Part shown: piece after piece, positions 1,385-58,536 of the stretch
Numbering within the stretch: position 1 is the first letter of the stretch
Layout of the letters: every line of letters starts with the position of its first letter
Origin: Ginglymostoma cirratum
Taxonomy: Eukaryota
Assembly: GCA_024137785.1 (NCBI GenBank)
Contig: JAHRHZ010000062.1
Location: 36,441,424-36,505,423, forward strand
Length of the DNA: 64,000 nt
Direction: 5' to 3'
The notes under the pieces: generated by a model
What the model saw: only the letters and a program-made list of their open reading frames with translations
The model's database searches: none
Told to the model about the DNA's origin: nothing
Translations under genes and position numbers: made by a program

Positions 1385-1585
1385 AAGAACTGCAGATGCT
1401 GGAGAACTGAAACAAACAAAAACAGAAACTGGTGGAGAAACTCAGCAGGTCTGGCACCGTCAGAGTTAACATTTCAAGTCCAGTGACCCTTCTTCAGAAC
1501 AGTTCTCAAGGAGGGTCTCTGGACTTGAAACCTTAACTCTGCTTTCTCTTCACAGGTGCTGCCAGGCTTGCTGAGTTTTTCCTGA
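1385..1585. mobile_element. Palindromic short Penelope-derived element with two degenerate hammerhead motifs
   Basis: Inverted arms centred at 1500/1501 (gaac-a-gttc). The - arm reads gttCTGAAGAagggtcactggacttGAAAtgttaact. The same terminal module ends the PLE remnant at 12900-13578. Confidence 0.75.
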
Positions 1586-2944: not shown

Positions 2945-3700
2945 GCAGTACGAAATCAATTATCTTATGTCATTGCAGGTATTTGTCAGGGTAGTGACCC
3001 AGGCCTAATCATCTTCAATTTCTTTATCAACAATCTTCCCTCTATCTTAATGTTGGAATTGAAGATGTTCGCAGATAATACCATCAGGTTCAGTTCCATT
3101 CACAACTCCTCAGATAAAGAATGCCCCCGTCAACGTGACAACATTCAGATGCAAGTTGGTAAAATAGCAAATAAGAGACAACACAGTGTGGAACTGGAGG
3201 AACACAACAGGCCAGGCAGCAGTAGAGGAGCAGGAAAGTTGACCTTTCTTCTGAAATGAAGGGTCCGACCCAAAACGTCAACTTTCCTGCTCCTCTGATG
3301 CTGCCTGGCCTGCTGTGTTCCTCCAGCTCCACACTGTGTTCCTCCAGCTCCACACTGTGTTGTCTCTGACTCCAGCACTGGCAGTTCTTGCTATCTCAAA
3401 ATGGCAAATAACATATTTACTACCCAGGTATCAGACAATGACCACCTTCAACAAGGTTAAGTTCAATCACATCCTCTTGGCATTCAATTGTATTAACATT
3501 GCCAAATCTCATCCACATCTGGGGGTCACCATTGACTATGTATAACAATTACTATATAGTTATATAATGCTATTAAATACTTGTCTAAAATAGCAGGTTG
3601 GAGAAACTGCATATTCTACAGCAAATGACACACCCCTCGATTCCACAAGCCTTTCCACATCAACAAGGCACAAGTCAAGAGTGAAATGAAAATAAATGCC
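2945..3700 (+). mobile_element. Degenerate CR1/L2-group LINE RT fragment interrupted by a palindromic insertion
   Basis: ORF 2846..3259 'AGICQGSDPGLIIFNFFINNLPS...MFADNT' is RT domain 4-5 like. Same family as 30710-32545. Confidence 0.7.
3175..3397. mobile_element. Palindromic Penelope-derived insertion with 14-bp target-site duplication
   Basis: Inverted arms at about 3174-3243 and 3277-3367, with central ctgaaatgaagggtccgacccaaaacgtca. Flanks are aaaatagcaaataa (3161-3174) and aaaatggcaaataa (3398-3411). Confidence 0.75.
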
Positions 3701-49153: not shown

Positions 49154-49241
49154 ATTTTACAGTCACCTGACACTCCTTCCTTTGCCTTTGGAACCACAAC
49201 CATTCCATGGAGATCAGCACCTTTATTAGAGGCATCACCAA
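49154..49241 (+). CDS. OTOG: Otogelin coding exon 4
   Basis: tttatttag acceptor, ILQSPDTPSFAFGTTTIPWRSAPLLEASP, donor gtaagg; phase 0 to 1 fits both neighbours. Confidence 0.7.
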
Positions 49242-50534
49242 GTAAGGATTTTAAATTTATTTCTTTAAGTTTCATGTTGACATTAGACAAAATAAAATTG
49301 TGTATTGACCTACTAATCTGAACACTGGAGTTTTGACTAATCCCATTCGAAGTAACACTTTTCAAGAAAGAAAACAGGAAATTATAGCCAGTTAGCCAAA
49401 CAGCAATACTGGAACTTACCATCAAAGAAGTTTCAATGATGCTCTTAGAAAATCAAAGTGATTTTATGAAGGAAAAATTCTGATCAGCTTTTATTTATTT
49501 GAGTTTTTTTGAGGTTGTAATGAATGAGTGGTTAGTTGGCACAATAAAGTTTCATGAACTTAGGGATAATATATGAACACTGATAGAGGAATGTTTGTTT
49601 TTATTCATTCATGGGAAGTGCCAATGACTGGCTGAGCCAGCATTTAATGCCTATCTCTAGTTGATCTTGAGAAGATGGTAGTGAGGTGCCTTCTTGTATT
49701 GTTGCAGTCCCTTTGCTGTTGGTAGAGCAACATCCACAGTGCTGTTAGGGAGGGAATTTTTTTGACCCAATGACACTGAAGGAACAGCAGTATATTTCCC
49801 TGTGAAGCTGGTGAATGGCTTGAAGTGGAATGAGCAGGCAATGTTCCCTCTGTTGTGTGGGCCTCTGAGGCCCATGTGCAGCAGTGATTTCTAGACTGGA
49901 AGTCAATGCCACAATTCACATTGCCATGTGTGGAACTTTAGAATGGCTTTGTGCCTGCAGGTACAGACGAAAGTTAAGTGGTATGTTTGTCTTTTATGGT
50001 AAGAGGATTGGAGTATAGGAATAAAGAAGTCTTATGACAAATACACAGGTTTTGGTGAGATCATATTTGGAGTATTATATACAGTTTAATTTTCCACATT
50101 TCTGAAACAGTTAAACTTATCAAGACAATGGTTCACCAAGTTGGCCCTGGGATGACAGAGTTAGAGTCATGGAGTCATAGAGGTCTACAGTATAGAAAAA
50201 GGCCCATTGTGTCCAAGCTTGTCAATAATGCCACCTAATTAATCCTATTTTCTAGCCCATGGCCCAGAGCCTAGTATGTCATGGCATTGCAGGTGCAGAT
50301 CTAATTCCATCTTAAATATTATGAGAACTGATCTACGAAGAGAGTCTGAGCGAATTCTGTATATTCTCCATTGTTTAGAAGTTTGAAACACAATCTAATT
50401 GTACAAAATTTCGAAGGGCCTGATAGGTTAGACAGTGAGAGATTGCTCCTGCTCGGTGGGGAAACTAGCAACTTTAGGGACACAGTCTTTGGATAAAGGG
50501 CCAATCATTGAGGATGGATGTGAGAAGAAGAGAG

Positions 50535-51752
50535 AAACAGGTCCACAGCGGATGCTATTTCCCTAGCCCCACACTCATCCGTGGAACATCTCGATAACAA
50601 GGAAACCTATGTCAGGCTCTTACTCATCGACTATAGCTCTGCCTTCAACACCATAATCCCCACCAGACTAATCGCTAAACTTCACGACTTAGGTCTTGGC
50701 TTCACCGTCTACAACTGGATCCTCAACTTCCTGACCCACAGACCACAATCAGTGAAGATTGACGATTGCACCTCCTCCACAAAAATCCTCAACATTGGTG
50801 TCCCACAAGGATACTTTCTCAGCCCCCTACTCTACTCCCTGTACTCCCATGACTGAGTAGCCAAATTCCGTATGAGTGCCATCTACAAGTTTGTCGATGA
50901 CACCACCATGGTAGGACAGATATCAAACAAAGATGATTCAGAATATAGGAAGAAGATAGAAGGCTTGGTGTCGAGTTAAATTATGATAACAACCTCTCAC
51001 TCAATGTTGGCAAAACTAAAGCCCTGATCATTGAGTTTGGAAAGAAAGGAGGAGGATGTGTCCCCATCTACATTAATGCAGTGGAGGTGGAGAGCATCAT
51101 ATTCCTAGGAGTGACGATAATGGACATCTGTCCTGGATTTCCCACATAGATGCAGCGGTCCACAAGGCAGAACAACGCCTCTTCTTCCTCAGGCTGCTAA
51201 GGAAATTTGGCATGTCCATAAAGACCCTCACCAATTTTCACAAGTGCGCCACAGAAAGCATACTGCCTGGGTGCTTATCAGCCTGGTATGGCAGCTGCTC
51301 TGCCCAGGACTAGAAGAAACTACAGAAACTTGTGTGCACAGCCCAGACCATCGCAAAGCCAACCTCCCACCCATGGACTCCATTTACATTTTTTGTTGCC
51401 ATAGAAAGGCTGCCAACATCATCAAAGACCCGTCCCACCATGGTTATGCTCCTACAACCTCTTCCATCAGGCAGAAGATACAGAAATTTGAACACATGTA
51501 CCAACAGGTTCAAAAACAGCTTCTTCACTGCCGTTATTGGACTGCTGAATGGATCTCTCCAACTTCAAATAATATTGATCTTGCTTTGTTATTTCCTGTG
51601 CAGCCGTAACCTTATATGCCTTCCTCTGTCTAATCATCCTATGATCTGTATGTCCTTGTTTGCTATGTTCGGCCTGTACTGCTCACAAAACAAAGCTTTT
51701 CACTGTACTTAGGTGCATGTGACTACAATAAATCAAATCAAAATCAAATCAA
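50535..51752 (+). mobile_element. 5'-truncated Rex1/Babar LINE inserted in a CR1 remnant
   Basis: '[32 protein letters not shown]', KFVDDTT and 'TNRFKNSFF'; aataaa then an (ATCAA)n tail. Confidence 0.88.
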
Positions 51753-53347
51753 AATAATTCATCCAAAAGGAAGTCTTTGGAAGTCTCTAGAGCTTTGGAT
51801 GCTCCATTGTTGAATTCAAATCAATCTTAACAAAAGGGCCAACCTATCTAGATGTCAAAAAATACTTGACCTGAAAACTAAGGTGAGTACCTGTTAAATT
51901 TGGCTCCCTGCTTGCTTCAAAGGAGCTCCGTGTTGGACATCAGGGACCAGTATCTCAGGGTATGTTCATGGGCACTGGCTGTGTGCAGTCCATGTCCATG
52001 GACTTTGGCATCTAACATGTGCCAGCCTCTAACAGCCTAAAGGGCACATATCCAGTTAACTTACAGGATGCTTTTAAACTTCAGTGCTGCACCTCAGGCT
52101 ATACTGGTAACTATCATTGTAATGCTGTAGCAAGGACACTGTCTGCTCAGGGACACACACCAAGCCCATGGACTGGACCAGGTTGTGTCTCTGGGCTCTT
52201 TGCTCACTGTTACAGTGTTCACTCACTCTGGGCCTACCTGAAGGCACACTGCATCCCCATCTTGCATTGCCTTAATGTCCCCTCAGCCAGGGATAAAAGG
52301 TTCATATTGCCTATGCTTTGCCTTGCCATTTAGTGCAGACTTGAAAGAAGTAAGCTTGCTGCGGTTGTCACAAGTCCTCAGTCAAAACCACGGGGATAGC
52401 CTTTGCTTGGGAGTCCTGACAGAGAAAGTCAAGAGCAGTCTCTAATACCATCCAGGCGCTTTGAAACGATCAGCCACACGCGGCAGTCGGGGTCAGGACA
52501 CTTTACACATAAGGGTGAGGAGTCAAAAGTCAGGCAGCTGACTACCCATTGTGACTCTTTCTGCCCTAAGAGGTGTTCTTTTCCATCTGAAATGAAATAA
52601 AAAGTCAGGTATTCAGGGAGATGAAAGCACATGGCACAGCTATTGCTTTTGGTGCAGGTGGAAGGGTATCTCCAGCATGTGAGCAGGCAGTACACAGGGC
52701 TTGCAGGGTTAGTGATATTGGGGGCTAGTGGTATTCCTCCAAAAACATGATACAACTGGGACTTAGCCAAAAAGTGAGTTTCAACCCAATTAGTCCAAAA
52801 CGAGCAGTGTGAAATGGATTCGTAAAAAATCAGCAAACAAGTTTTCACTGTGCCCTAATTTCTTTCCATTCATTTGTTCTCTTGTTAGAGACATCCAGAG
52901 TAAAACAAAATTATAGCAACAGGAGCTCTGGTCTATAAAAACAAGCTGCAATATTTAAAAAATGTTTGTTTGAAATTTACAGAATTTTGTTTCGATATAG
53001 GTGGTTAGCTGCAAGTACAGTTCAGAACACATCCAAAAAAAATAAACTGAGGACGTAAATTGTAGGTGAAGATTAAATAGTTTCAGACTCAATGTTGCCA
53101 ATTGTGTTACTTGTTTTGAACAAGTTTTTTTTTTAATAAGAGTCAATAACAATCTGTCAGACCATTCTCAAAATCTGGGAATCGAAATATGCTGGACTCT
53201 GAGCTTTGATGATTTTAATTTTAACGTTGCATATGATGGTCTAGCATATATATTTGACATATTAGGACAATTGAAACTCATGGGATTAAAGGATCAGTTG
53301 CAGCATAGATTCAAAAGCCATGAATTAAGTAATGGAAAGCAGAGTGT

Positions 53348-53712
53348 GTTTTTTTTTTATTCATTCACGGGATGAGAGTGTCGCTGGCCAGACAGCATTT
53401 ATTGCCCATCCCTAAACACCCAGAGGGCAGTTAAGAGTTGACCACAATGCTGTAGGTCTGGAATCACACGTAGACCAGGCCAGGTAAGGATGGCAGTTTC
53501 TTTCCTTAAAAGGACATTAATGAACCAGATGGGTTTTTCTGGCAATTGACAATGGATTCATGGTCATCATTCGACTCTTAATTCCAGACTTTTTAAAAAT
53601 TGAATTCAAATTCTACCATCTGCTATCGTGGTATTCAAACCCAGATGCCCAGAACGTTATCTGGGTCTCTGAATTAACAGTCCAACAATAATACCACTAG
53701 GCCATTGCCCCC
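53348..53712 (-). mobile_element. tRNA-derived SINE sharing its 3' tail with the LINE at 30710
   Basis: The - strand head is ggggcaatggcctagtgg..gggtttgaatacc; the tail ttattcattcacgggatg..cagcatttattgcccatcccta matches 30716-30773. Confidence 0.8.
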
Positions 53713-53970
53713 CTGTGGTGTGGTGAACATTGGTTTTTAGGCTGGAAGCAAATACAGGTTGGTGACCCCTGGAGATCACTTTTTATCTCTTTTTAGTCAG
53801 GCTTGGATATATGTCCATAATCCTAAAGTTTGCAAATGACATGAAACTTTGAAATGTAGTAAACAGTGAGGAAATAACAATAGGCTGCAGGAAATGATAG
53901 GCTAGTGCAGATGACAGACACAGGGCAGCTAAGTTGAGGTTGGTTGTCTCGCTGAGCTAGTTTGTTGCTT

Positions 53971-54012
53971 TGCAGACGTTTCGTTACCTTGCTTGTTAAC
54001 ATCCTCAGTGCA
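53971..54012 (-). ncRNA. Minimal type I hammerhead ribozyme motif (PLE type)
   Basis: UGCA-CUGAGGA-U-GUUA-ACAAGCAAGG-UAAC-GAA-ACGU-C-UGCA: full core, 4-bp stems I and II, palindromic ACGU in place of stem III, GUC triplet. Confidence 0.8.
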
Positions 54013-54468
54013 GCCTCCGACGAAGCGTCGGTGTGTTTTCCCGCCTGGTTTTTAAACCCTGGGGTCCGTTGAGATGGATTGCCTCACTTCCGGTTTTCCT
54101 TCGTAGTGGAATGTATATGGGGTCGCGTTCAATGTGTTTATTAATAGCATGCTTCGTGGAGTGCCATGCTTCCAGGAATTCTCGTGCTTGTCTCTGCCTA
54201 GCCTATTCCAGGATCTTGGTGTCCCAGTCGAAGTTGTCCCATGACTTCGATTGGGACAACACCAAGATCCTGGGATAGGCTAGGCAGAGACAAGCACGAG
54301 AATTCCTGGAAGCATGGCACTCCACGAAGCATGCTATTAATAAACACATTGAACTCGACCCTATATACATTCCACTATGAAGGAAAACCGGAAGTGAGGC
54401 AATCTATCTCAATGGACCCCAGAATTTAAAAACCAGGTGGGAAAACACACCGACTCTTCGTCGGAGGC

Positions 54469-54510
54469 TGCGCTGAGGATGTGAGCAAGCACGGTAACGA
54501 AACGTCTGCG
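54469..54510 (+). ncRNA. Minimal hammerhead ribozyme motif, weakened stems
   Basis: UGCG-CUGAGGA-U-GUGA-GCAAGCACGG-UAAC-GAA-ACGU-C-UGCG: core intact, two G-U pairs in stem I, one mismatch in stem II. Confidence 0.65.
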
Positions 54511-55911
54511 GAACAACAAACCAGCTCAGCGAGCCAACCAACCTCAACACCCACAACCCGAGCTACAGATCTACTCCAAAACCTTAGACATGACAGCTAA
54601 ATCGAAAAGAATTGGCTAAAGTTACATATTTTGGTTGGAAGAACGAGAAAAACATGAATTAAATGATACAATTGTAAAGGGGTGCAGAAATAGAAATTTT
54701 TGAAGGTGGCAAGATACATTGACAAAGCTGCCAAAAGAGCATTTAAGATCATTGGCTTTATAAATAGAGAAGAAAAGAAGTTATGTGAGACTTTATCCAA
54801 ATTATCGGTTAGATTGGATTACTGTGTTCGGTTCTGGGAACCACACAAAAGGAAAAATGTCAAAACCTTTGAGAGATACAAAAGAGCTTTACTAGAATGG
54901 TACTTGGGATGTGGGACTTCAGTTATTTGGAAAGTCTTGAGAATATGTGGTTTCTCAGCTGCGAGTAGAGATTGAAGTATATTGTGTTGTAAATCACAAT
55001 GGCTTTTGAAAAAGTAAATATGGAGAATCTGTTTCTAATGTTAACACAGTTGGTAACCAGAAGTATGTAGATTTAATGTCAGAGGTGACATGAGAGATCT
55101 TTTTCCCAGAATGATATGTTTTGCTCTGGAAGTACAATTTTAAACGACGTGGTAGTAGACTCGATAATAACTCTCAAAAGGGAATTAAAATGCACTTGAA
55201 AGAAAAAGAAAATGCTGTCCTTTCAAAAAGCTATCATAGATATGATGAGACAAATAATTCCTTTTGCACTGTCTTATTCTATGATTCTAGAAGCTACAAT
55301 GATTCCCAATATAAGGTCCCAAGGCTATACTAAATTAATAAATTTCATACGGGACTATAGTTCATTTTCCTAGGACGAAAGCAATATCTTGTAAGGAAAG
55401 ATTGAGTAAGTTGAACCTGTATTTATTAGTGTTTAGATGAGTGAGAGTTGATCTTATTGAAACATGGAAGATTCTGGGGGTACTTCACATTGAGAGGACT
55501 TTTTCTTCCCCTTTTGGGAGAAACTGGAATTAGGGAATGCAGCTTTAAGATAGGACCTCTCCCATTTAAGTTAGAGATTAGGGGAAATATTTTCTCTTAG
55601 GATATTGTTCTGTGGAGATCAGTTGGGGCAGAGTCTGTGAACAGGGAGTCAGAGTGTGTAGGAGTAGTCAGGAAAGTAGAGCTAAGTTCACAGTCAGATC
55701 AGCTATGATCTTATCCAATGGCGGACAGGCTCAAGAGGCCAATTGGTCTATTCCTGCAAACAATTTATGTATTTATATACTTGTATATAAGGCAATTGGT
55801 CTCTGTAGTCCCGCACTGGGGAAAAACATGGCATTTGTCTAGGTTTTCACTTCGGATCATTCAGCAAATTAATTAGATTTATGTATTAAATAAAGCATAA
55901 TTTTCATAAAT

Positions 55912-56263
55912 GGAATCCTCACAGTTTGGAAACAGGCCATTCGGCCCAACAAGTCCACACTGACCTTCAAAGAGCATCCCATCCAAACCCATTTCCCTAC
56001 CCTATCCCTGTAACTGTGTATTTCCCATGGCTAATGCACCTAACCTACACAACCCTGAACACTACAGGCAATTTAGCATGGCCGATCCATCTAACCTGCA
56101 CATCTTTGGAATGTGGGAAGAAACTGGAACACCCGGCAGAAACCCACACAGACACGGGGAGAACAAGCAAACTGCACACAGATTGTTGCCTGAGGTCAGA
56201 ATCGAACCCGAGTCCCTGGCGATTTGAGGCAGAAGTGCTAACCACGGAGCCAGTGTGCTGCCC
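55912..56263 (-). mobile_element. HE1-type V-SINE
   Basis: The reverse complement has the head gggcagcacactggctccgtggttagcac, ggttcgattc and the V-domain. Confidence 0.9.
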
Positions 56264-57318
56264 ATTTTCATTAGTATGTTGGTATTTTGAAATCTCTGAT
56301 AAGTGCAAGTGGTCTTACTTGAAACATGTAAGATCCTGAGGGATTTTGCAGGCTGGATGCTGGAACTAATAGGCCACAATTTAAAAATAAGGGGACTCCA
56401 ATTTAAGACTGAGATGAGGATAGATTTTTGTTTCTCAATGGGTCATAAATAATTCAATGGATCTCTTCCAGAAAAAGCAGTGGAAGCAGCTACATGATGG
56501 GCCAAGGACGTGTCCATAAGATGCCCTGGAACAGAAAATTATCAGTTTATCTGCTAAATAAACCTATTTGATATTTTCAGGAAAATTAAAGCTCAGTGAC
56601 TTGCCAGTCAAGAATGCGAGTAGTAATTGGGTTAAGGAAAGCAGCACAAGAACATGGTAGGGGTGCATGGTACTGTGGAATTGAGAACATAATCAGATCA
56701 TTCTCCTCCCCTGTAATGCTTTTCAGGACATAGTTTAGTGGTTAGTTATAATTTCGAAGCACCATCTACCGGAATTGAATTACCTACACAACAGAGGAAT
56801 CAATTCAATGCTTCAGTGATTCTGAATACAGCACAGCTGCTGAGGAACTGAACTTCATCCATTTTGCATCAGTAGAATAATTTACATTATACTCCAAAGA
56901 ATGCAATTACTGCAACCCCAGGTTCAGAACTAAAGCGAGTTTTATCTTGTTTTTTTGGTCTAATCTCATGATTTCATTTGAATTTTGCTATGTTTCTATT
57001 TAATGGTCACTTTTGCAGATTTTATTATTTATGGCAATAATGATTAACATTTTTTGATTTCTAACATGGCTTCCATAACATGTAGTATTTGCAAGATTAA
57101 AATGTTGTTTTCTCTTTCTATCAGTATTTCTTGTGAATTGCCGTGATGAGTGCAAGAAAGCTTTAATTTTTTTCAGCATAACTCGATCAACCTTTCTCAG
57201 CCATAGTATATTGCAACGTATCTATACTTTGACATTATTTAATACAGTATGCCGCTATAGCCATTGAACAAATCTGGCTAAGTACCAATATTATTGAAAT
57301 GAAGTATTTTCTTTTCAG

Positions 57319-57417
57319 CTTTATGCTCGCTCCCATGTCTAAATGCAGGAATATGTGTAAATATGGACCAATGTGACTGCACTGAATTTGAGGCAAATGG
57401 AACACGATGCCAAACAG
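57319..57417 (+). CDS. OTOG: Otogelin coding exon 5 (EGF-like domain)
   Basis: LCSLPCLNAGICVNMDQCDCTEFEANGTRCQT (human [26 protein letters not shown], recalled); AG/GT boundaries, phase 1 to 1. Confidence 0.92.
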
Positions 57418-58381
57418 GTACAAATTTAACAAAAAGAGAAATTCCAATAGCAACTTTTAAATCTATAATGCCTCATTATTAAAATTTTACATTTATAAAT
57501 GTTCGTGCAGTAAGCTAATTGTACAAGTGTTTAAAAATAATTTGTCAGGTATTTTCATTTAGCTAACTGAAATAAGTACTTTAGTATATATGGTATTTCT
57601 GATTTATATGACCAAAAGCCATTTTTGAAATTAGGAAGTATCAGATGAGCAGAATTATTGATTTGTATTCGTGCTGAAACAAGGGTTAATCTTGATTTTC
57701 GGTGATAACTATTATTTTATGCCATCAGATTAGCCACCTGTTATATAGCTTTTCCAGTTTTTATTTTCATTAACTACAGAAATACAATTTCACTTAATGT
57801 CAAATTTAGTCCAAAAGATATGATAAAAAATTATTTTAGCCAGTAAGTTCTATTATCTAAATTTATACGTTTATGTACCAGTCCACACTAAATGTAGAAT
57901 TAAAAAAAAAAATCAGAGAGAAACTGAGCCTGATGGTATGTGAAAAGTGCTTTTATAATGGTGTGCATAAATTCAGTATGATCATTATCTCTCCATTCAG
58001 AACTTTGTATTTAATTTTGATTTAAAAGAGAGTTTTAAAAATACACATCTTTTAAAGTTCACATTATATCAAATGTAATGCAATTTTCATCCTGAGATAT
58101 TCCTATATATATAATGCTCCAGGGATAGTAAAATGTAACCTTTGATGAATCTGTGAAGGGTAAGTGATTGGAAACTGATTTGGATAATTTGCTTTAATGT
58201 AAATCAGGAATAATATGTATTAGTTTGAAATTTAATGGATTGACAAATGTACTTTTTATCCATGCTTGATTGTCAAACGCATCAAAATAAATTAATCTGT
58301 TCGGTTTGAAGGTTGGTACAGAATTATTTTAAATATTTTCTAAATTTTTTAAAAAACAAGTAACTATTATCTATTTTGCAG

Positions 58382-58536
58382 TTCCCAATAAAGGTAGCAG
58401 TCGTGATTTGATCTGCCGAACTTGGGGCCAGTACAATTATGAAACATTTGATGGACTTTACTATTATTATCCTGGAAACTGCACATATACACTAGTGAGG
58501 GATTGCACACAAAATCAGCAGAGCTTCTCAATTCAG
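58382..58536 (+). CDS. OTOG: Otogelin coding exon 6 (start of VWD1)
   Basis: [51 protein letters not shown]; ttttgcag acceptor and gtaaca donor. Confidence 0.95.

Follow-up and report, generated by a model that had tools for sequence, protein, structure and literature searches.

Within the window analysed here, that is, the whole stretch of 64,000 nucleotides from Ginglymostoma cirratum, plus-strand exons at ~44080, 49154-49241, 57319-57417, ~58381-58535 and ~63740 match shark and amniote otogelin, more plus-strand exons continue downstream, and every otogelin exon found lies on the plus strand. These matches place the hammerhead ribozyme motif that was originally reported from an otogelin intron within 49242-57318, as had been claimed; the insertion that carries it sits in this 8.1-kb intron, and the closest exon found is over 2.7 kb away. 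Because the otogelin exons are on the plus strand, the reported hammerhead is antisense to the gene, and the pre-mRNA carries instead a second copy at 54469-54510. Within the genome, an otogelin-type bird protein matches the host gene best, and the named protein hits of this gene are otogelin. The paralogue OTOGL was considered as host and rejected, the otogelin-type bird protein matching at 68% here vs 47% at the same exon of the paralogue on C21. That paralogue, presumably otogelin-like, lies at C21:20072403-20082630 on the minus strand and has 43-56% identity per exon to the otogelin-type query. The features of the locus are:

49154-49241, plus strand: otogelin exon upstream of the host intron
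53920-53932, plus strand: left target-site duplication, 13 bp, degraded (11/13 identical to the right copy)
53933-54237, minus strand: left arm of the insertion, a 5'-truncated Penelope 3' end (remnant of the GIY-YIG C-terminus, pseudo-LTR (pLTR), hammerhead) with the short end that lacks a tail
53971-54012, minus strand: minimal type I hammerhead, antisense to otogelin, with full core and ACGU palindrome
54240-54587, plus strand: right arm, the inverted partner, with the same element end plus tail
54240-54377, plus strand: remnant of the GIY-YIG endonuclease frame (C-terminus), interrupted in frame by a stop at 54276-54278
54469-54510, plus strand: second minimal hammerhead, on the otogelin sense strand, with a complete core and two changes that break stem II
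54549-54587, plus strand: one-sided tail of ~40 nt, typical of Penelope-like elements
54588-54600, plus strand: right target-site duplication, 13 bp
57319-57417, plus strand: EGF-like otogelin exon that follows the host intron

Lunse et al. have reportedly worked on the minimal type I hammerheads (min-HHR) that metazoan Penelope-like elements carry. Re-reading of the minus strand at 53971-54012 reproduced exactly the letters and coordinates first given, and the claim that every core nucleotide and the cleavage triplet are present held: all 12 core bases are kept (consensus C3 U4 G5 A6 N7 G8 A9, G12 A13 A14, A15.1, U16.1 and H17), with CUGAGGA at 54008-54002, GAA at 53982-53980 and C17 at 53975, and the predicted cut falls between 53975 and 53974. 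Stem I joins UGCA (54012-54009) to UGCA (53974-53971) in 4 bp, all Watson-Crick. The arms of stem II lie at 54000-53995 and 53988-53983 and include the G10.1-C11.1 pair (G54000 with C53983); an unpaired U at 54001, between A9 and G10.1, stands ahead of them, and stem III is reduced to the palindrome ACGU at 53979-53976 (positions 15.1-16.1). The triplet at 54002-54000, formed by A9, the unpaired U and G10.1, matches the element's likely start codon. The second hammerhead (54469-54510) has two wobble pairs in stem I.

A strict descriptor, which demands the palindrome, the complete core and 4 bp or more in each of stems I and II, found the site in the window and gave 0 matches in 600 dinucleotide shuffles; core and palindrome alone gave 2 matches in the real window vs 0.29 per shuffled window. 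Rfam matched no hammerhead model at either threshold: gathering thresholds gave nothing over the whole 64-kb window, and relaxed E-values over 53800-54700 gave no hammerhead family, the sub-threshold matches being microRNA-like and others, mostly at the hairpin centre. A short hairpin at 54017-54034, directly upstream of the antisense hammerhead on the element strand, is predicted in both arms and in one family copy.

The insertion as a whole comprises 655 bp (53933-54587) and is a doubly 5'-truncated, inverted, Penelope-like remnant with the motif in the pLTR. Its arms form an inverted repeat (53933-54222 vs 54259-54548; 290 nt, 93% complementary) in which two element 3' ends face outward, with a remnant of the GIY-YIG endonuclease upstream of each hammerhead. 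The copy in the window retains only the C-terminus of the endonuclease and no RT, and its two hammerheads lie on opposite strands with no tandem same-strand partner between them; being inverted and carrying endonuclease coding sequence, the copies depart from the non-LTR retrozyme layout of head-to-tail non-coding units. Both arms carry a variant seen in 0 of 143 other family copies, and since they share a base absent from those copies, the comparison suggests one template and one insertion event. Very high-copy repeats, recognized by depth and unrelated to the hammerhead, adjoin the insertion at window ~53350-53715 and from ~55910; we take them to be SINE-like.

The family to which the insertion belongs is large. 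In the 4.36 Gb of genome searched, exact matches to its core plus stem II number at least 971 (control, 0), and anchors outside the ribozyme gave 1,440 matches. One decayed full-length tandem copy (L198, C12:69360300-69364800) consists of a pLTR, an RT with a YVDD motif, a GIY-YIG endonuclease, a second pLTR and an inverted arm, and its two same-strand hammerheads and pLTRs lie 2,486 bases apart, such that a single frame of RT followed by C-terminal GIY-YIG between tandem pLTRs is found at the family level, in this decayed copy. The frame opens at an AUG made of A9, the unpaired U and G10.1, inside the hammerhead, and runs through the tail into the N-terminal region, interrupted by one stop. 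The right-arm endonuclease remnant in the window is identical to the endonuclease region of L198 at 31 of 33 residues. This arrangement, with the motif placed after a GIY-YIG remnant and with an RT plus GIY-YIG frame in a full-length tandem copy of the family, upholds the attribution to a Penelope-like minimal hammerhead. Pfam matches to the fragments of L198 itself fall below curated cut-offs, and the RVT_1 cut-off was passed by two of the three homologues scanned. By inspection, the RT-to-EN linkers of L198 and P0022 have no CX2-5CxxC zinc-finger motif, an absence that serves as a Penelope/Poseidon criterion (PMC8557442) and that points to the Penelope/Poseidon clade. A public shark protein annotated as a MAP3K7 isoform (P0023) includes sequence of the element's endonuclease region, at 65% identity across 69% of the query, which would be either an exonised remnant or an annotation error.

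The number of minimal cores genome-wide is very high, with 97,506 exact matches (stems unchecked) against 97 for the reversed control. Most of the 100 core matches listed belong to a second family that has the same core and palindrome with other stems, stem II being shorter and G-C-rich; GIY-YIG-like sequence was seen in 2 of 10 fetched stretches (L209-L218), and the motif concerned is presumably Neptune-like. Several copies of this second family form very short fold-backs, and two degenerate hammerhead-like remnants that resemble it occur in the window at 3253-3278 (plus strand) and 1468-1497 (minus strand).

The structure of the window insertion is the ordinary one for its family. In a survey of 90 loci covering the first 100 of the 1,440 anchored matches, with overlapping loci not merged, short 3' ends, for the most part at +69 to +71 counted from the start codon, made up 73 of 135, and long ones, for the most part at +108 to +110, another 60; one of each was joined in 45 of the 48 pairs that face outward. 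A target duplication of 7-14 bp was present in 28 of 41 distinct pairs (two pairs at locus edges being skipped) vs 11 of 1,640 mismatched controls. Such inverted pairs, with tailed and tail-less ends inside a 7-14 bp duplication, are useful data on Penelope insertion. The window insertion shows 5' truncation, an inverted partner and a one-sided 30-40 bp tail, all three, and in these respects resembles the complex insertions of EN+ Penelope-like elements, with their 5' truncation, inverted 5'-truncated copy and tail of 30-40 bp at one end (Craig et al. 2021, PMC8557442); it differs from them in that both arms are cut to ~300 bp, with no ORF body (PMC8557442).

How the motif has fared among the copies was assessed in a set of 97 of equal length, picked by their flanks only after 3 of 100 with indels were dropped. 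The 12-base core is present in 58 of them, core plus ACGU in 31, and these together with all six stem II and four stem I pairs in 24; core retention (58/97) is near the 61% expected under neutral decay. Non-CpG changes from the majority amount to 33/1,067 in the core vs 38/1,358 in the flanks (P = 0.72), the flank figure being 90/1,552 before two subfamily-polymorphic positions are dropped, and the CpG at G12 decays like flank CpGs (17/97 vs 66/388). With 150 copies, 14 polymorphic positions dropped and a base-matched background, 41 core changes were counted vs 47.2 expected (P = 0.30). Excess conservation of the core across genomic copies, the lack of which the original prediction had named as refuting it, was not found in either comparison. 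Such an excess is not expected of dead-on-arrival copies, and its absence removes any special status from the motif while leaving chemical inactivity unproven.

Stem II gave a different figure in the 150 copies, with 26 changes vs 43.3 expected (P = 0.03, one of two tests, partner arms not being independent). We infer that this excess reflects selection in the source elements, where the same bases serve structure and coding sequence; it is uninformative for the antisense hammerhead, which itself lacks one stem II pair. Between element lineages, selection on the motif is clear. The two arms of the window insertion differ from the majority by 3.9% and 5.2% at non-CpG sites, against a family median of 3.0%. 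Contigs from two runs of a related organism, in an alignment that consists mostly of other family copies, begin within the tail, cross the right junction and extend over 906 bases of the flank with ~95% identity. Because this tail-to-flank junction is thus also present in the related organism, the insertion probably predates the split between the two.

With respect to stem II of the antisense hammerhead itself, the description of an intact motif with paired stems I and II needs correction. Stem I pairs throughout, as claimed. The stem II of the family has 6 bp and a 6-nt loop, and in the copy at 53971-54012 a C-to-A change at position 10.5 (53996) leaves 4 bp plus an inner A-G mismatch, with five of six pairs kept. 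The isolated hairpin is calculated at +0.7 kcal/mol (predicted unfolded) vs -6.0 for the family majority, its pairing probability in context is at most 0.07 vs 0.85-0.99, and stem II is equally unstable in only 1 of 31 core-intact copies. "Intact" was therefore an overstatement, and the 24 of 97 family copies noted above, which were chosen without regard to the motif, are more complete. As a double hammerhead, the antisense copy reaches -6.1 kcal/mol, the family majority -18.1 and the sense copy -0.3, and 27 of the 31 core-intact copies have a more stable double-hammerhead fold than the antisense copy. The antisense copy and the majority are equal, at 9.6 kcal/mol, in the margin that parts the double-hammerhead fold from its best dimer competitor, so that this measure does not separate them. 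When the whole insertion is folded, predicted pairing with the opposite arm takes up 40 of the 42 bases in the sense motif and 36 of the 42 in the antisense one. The energies are nearest-neighbour values, which ignore Mg2+ and help from protein.

We consider it very likely that the locus holds a minimal type I hammerhead in a truncated, inverted Penelope-like insertion within an otogelin intron, as an idle and neutrally decaying passenger. In an active tandem element, as the literature describes it, two hammerheads would pair their ACGU palindromes, making one stem III in common, and would cleave after GUC at a slow rate, probably assisted by the protein of the element. At this locus, a single retrotransposition event may have copied both arms from the same template, copying having started at the two 3' ends that are fixed in the family (~+70 and ~+109 relative to the start codon). 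The otogelin pre-mRNA would then carry only the plus-strand hammerhead, with its broken stem II and predicted sequestration in a hairpin of ~290 bp, and an antisense RNA would carry the copy at 53971-54012, equally sequestered, weak in stem II and lacking a tandem partner. Against idleness may be set the complete core, palindrome and Watson-Crick 4-bp stem I of the antisense copy and the retention of the core by both arms; against pure neutrality, the above-background conservation of stem II in the family. The persistence of the insertion, probably across the split from the related organism, likewise weighs against this reading.

Compatible with this reading is one in which the antisense copy is biologically idle yet chemically competent, such that, once taken out of its surroundings and built into a tandem dimer, it would cleave slowly after GUC in high Mg2+. 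We regard this as possible though rather unlikely. The core, the ACGU palindrome, the G10.1-C11.1 pair and the 4-bp stem I are all present, the double-hammerhead energy is still negative, and dimer and trimer constructs of a Schistosoma min-HHR were cleaved at a low level (PMC4209133). Opposed to these are a stem II that alone is predicted not to form, at a level of instability shared by a single core-intact copy, the poor performance in vitro of min-HHRs that are intact (PMC4209133), and the Anolis Poseidon hammerhead, which cut only with the element's protein (PMC11167929). Of the suggestion that this copy may still be competent, then, the core bases and palindrome stand, and the weakness of stem II, the missing tandem partner and the presence of the reverse complement in otogelin pre-mRNA count against it; competence is weakly supported at best.

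Co-option by otogelin, with the sense hammerhead or the long hairpin affecting how the transcript is spliced or edited or how much of it there is, in the manner of amniote intronic hammerheads, strikes us as highly improbable. The intron is transcribed, a long duplex is predicted, the right junction is seen in the related organism, and domesticated intronic hammerheads such as that of RECK exist (PMC6155905); the sense copy, however, has the worst stem II and almost no double-hammerhead stability, the arms are further from the majority than the family median, the nearest exon found is distant, and inverted pairs are the family's normal form. The locus does share with the amniote intronic hammerheads a type I hammerhead in a vertebrate intron (PMC6155905). 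RECK-type hammerheads are conserved across species and proposed to be domesticated, whereas the one here is minimal, antisense and drawn from a high-copy decaying family (PMC6155905), and no foldable form lies on the host transcript strand, the antisense copy being on the other strand and the sense copy broken in stem II. We give scant credence to the broader notion that the ~97,500 core-intact hammerheads might meet in trans via ACGU and thereby effect dispersed, transposon-protein-licensed cutting of pre-mRNAs and antisense RNAs in the shark, those of otogelin among them. That the short hammerhead consensus was matched by chance has a negligible probability, and the motif is real: the loose core pattern gives 12 window matches vs 8.3 expected, the single-strand fold of the 42-mer is no better than its own shuffles (z = 0.42, an uninformative value) and Rfam names no hammerhead family here, but the strict descriptor is silent in all shuffles, the motif has a fixed place in a large repeat family, and a second family has other stems around the same core.

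For Penelope-like elements, publications already cover the architecture, the unpaired base ahead of stem II, the pairs on opposite strands and a start codon within the ribozyme, and the locus itself is ordinary, being a decayed copy, one of thousands, of a type on record since 2014. The family resembles metazoan Penelope-like min-HHRs in its helix I of 4-5 bp, unpaired base 9/10.1, G10.1-C11.1 pair and palindrome 15.2-16.2, and likewise in its pLTR location, its thousands of dispersed copies and its opposite-strand pairs 100-700 bp apart (Cervera and De la Peña 2014, PMC4209133). In that study, min-HHR monomers gave no cleavage and dimers low cleavage. The helix II of metazoan min-HHRs is long (PMC4209133), that of the present family has 6 bp at -6.0 kcal/mol, and that of the antisense copy is damaged. 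The 97,506 cores counted here with stems unchecked are more numerous than the ~4,000 of coelacanth and ~9,000 of Xenopus obtained by structural descriptor (PMC4209133), with which they are not directly comparable. The abstract, Results and Discussion of that paper on metazoan min-HHRs do not name sharks; related retrozymes are reported in one chondrichthyan (bioRxiv 10.64898/2026.07.22.740005), and further comparison literature is available (PMC6765202, PMC6466107). A literature search found no paper on the locus or the family, although the supplements of PMC4209133 or of the preprint may list shark families.

Should remnants of this kind prove to cut host RNA in vivo, this would be relevant to the still open role of hammerheads in Penelope-like elements. 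Among similar systems is PAc, a Poseidon of Anolis carolinensis whose ribozyme is active in vitro when assisted by protein (Frangieh et al. 2024, PMC11167929). The PAc hammerhead cuts only with the element's protein and is dispensable for insertion in vitro, no RNA-seq ends were seen at the cut site, and the tail was explained by two reverse-transcription starts (PMC11167929). The window copy differs from PAc in being truncated to a remnant that lacks an RT and whose endonuclease part contains a stop. The shark family, probably of Poseidon type, repeats the Anolis layout, with a start codon within the ribozyme and two fixed 3' ends: as in PAc, the ORF opens where stem II starts, the distance from start codon to cut being 28 nt here and 26 in PAc, and two fixed 3' ends define the tail, with the long end at ~+109 here and reverse-transcription starts at +111 to +118 in PAc (PMC11167929).
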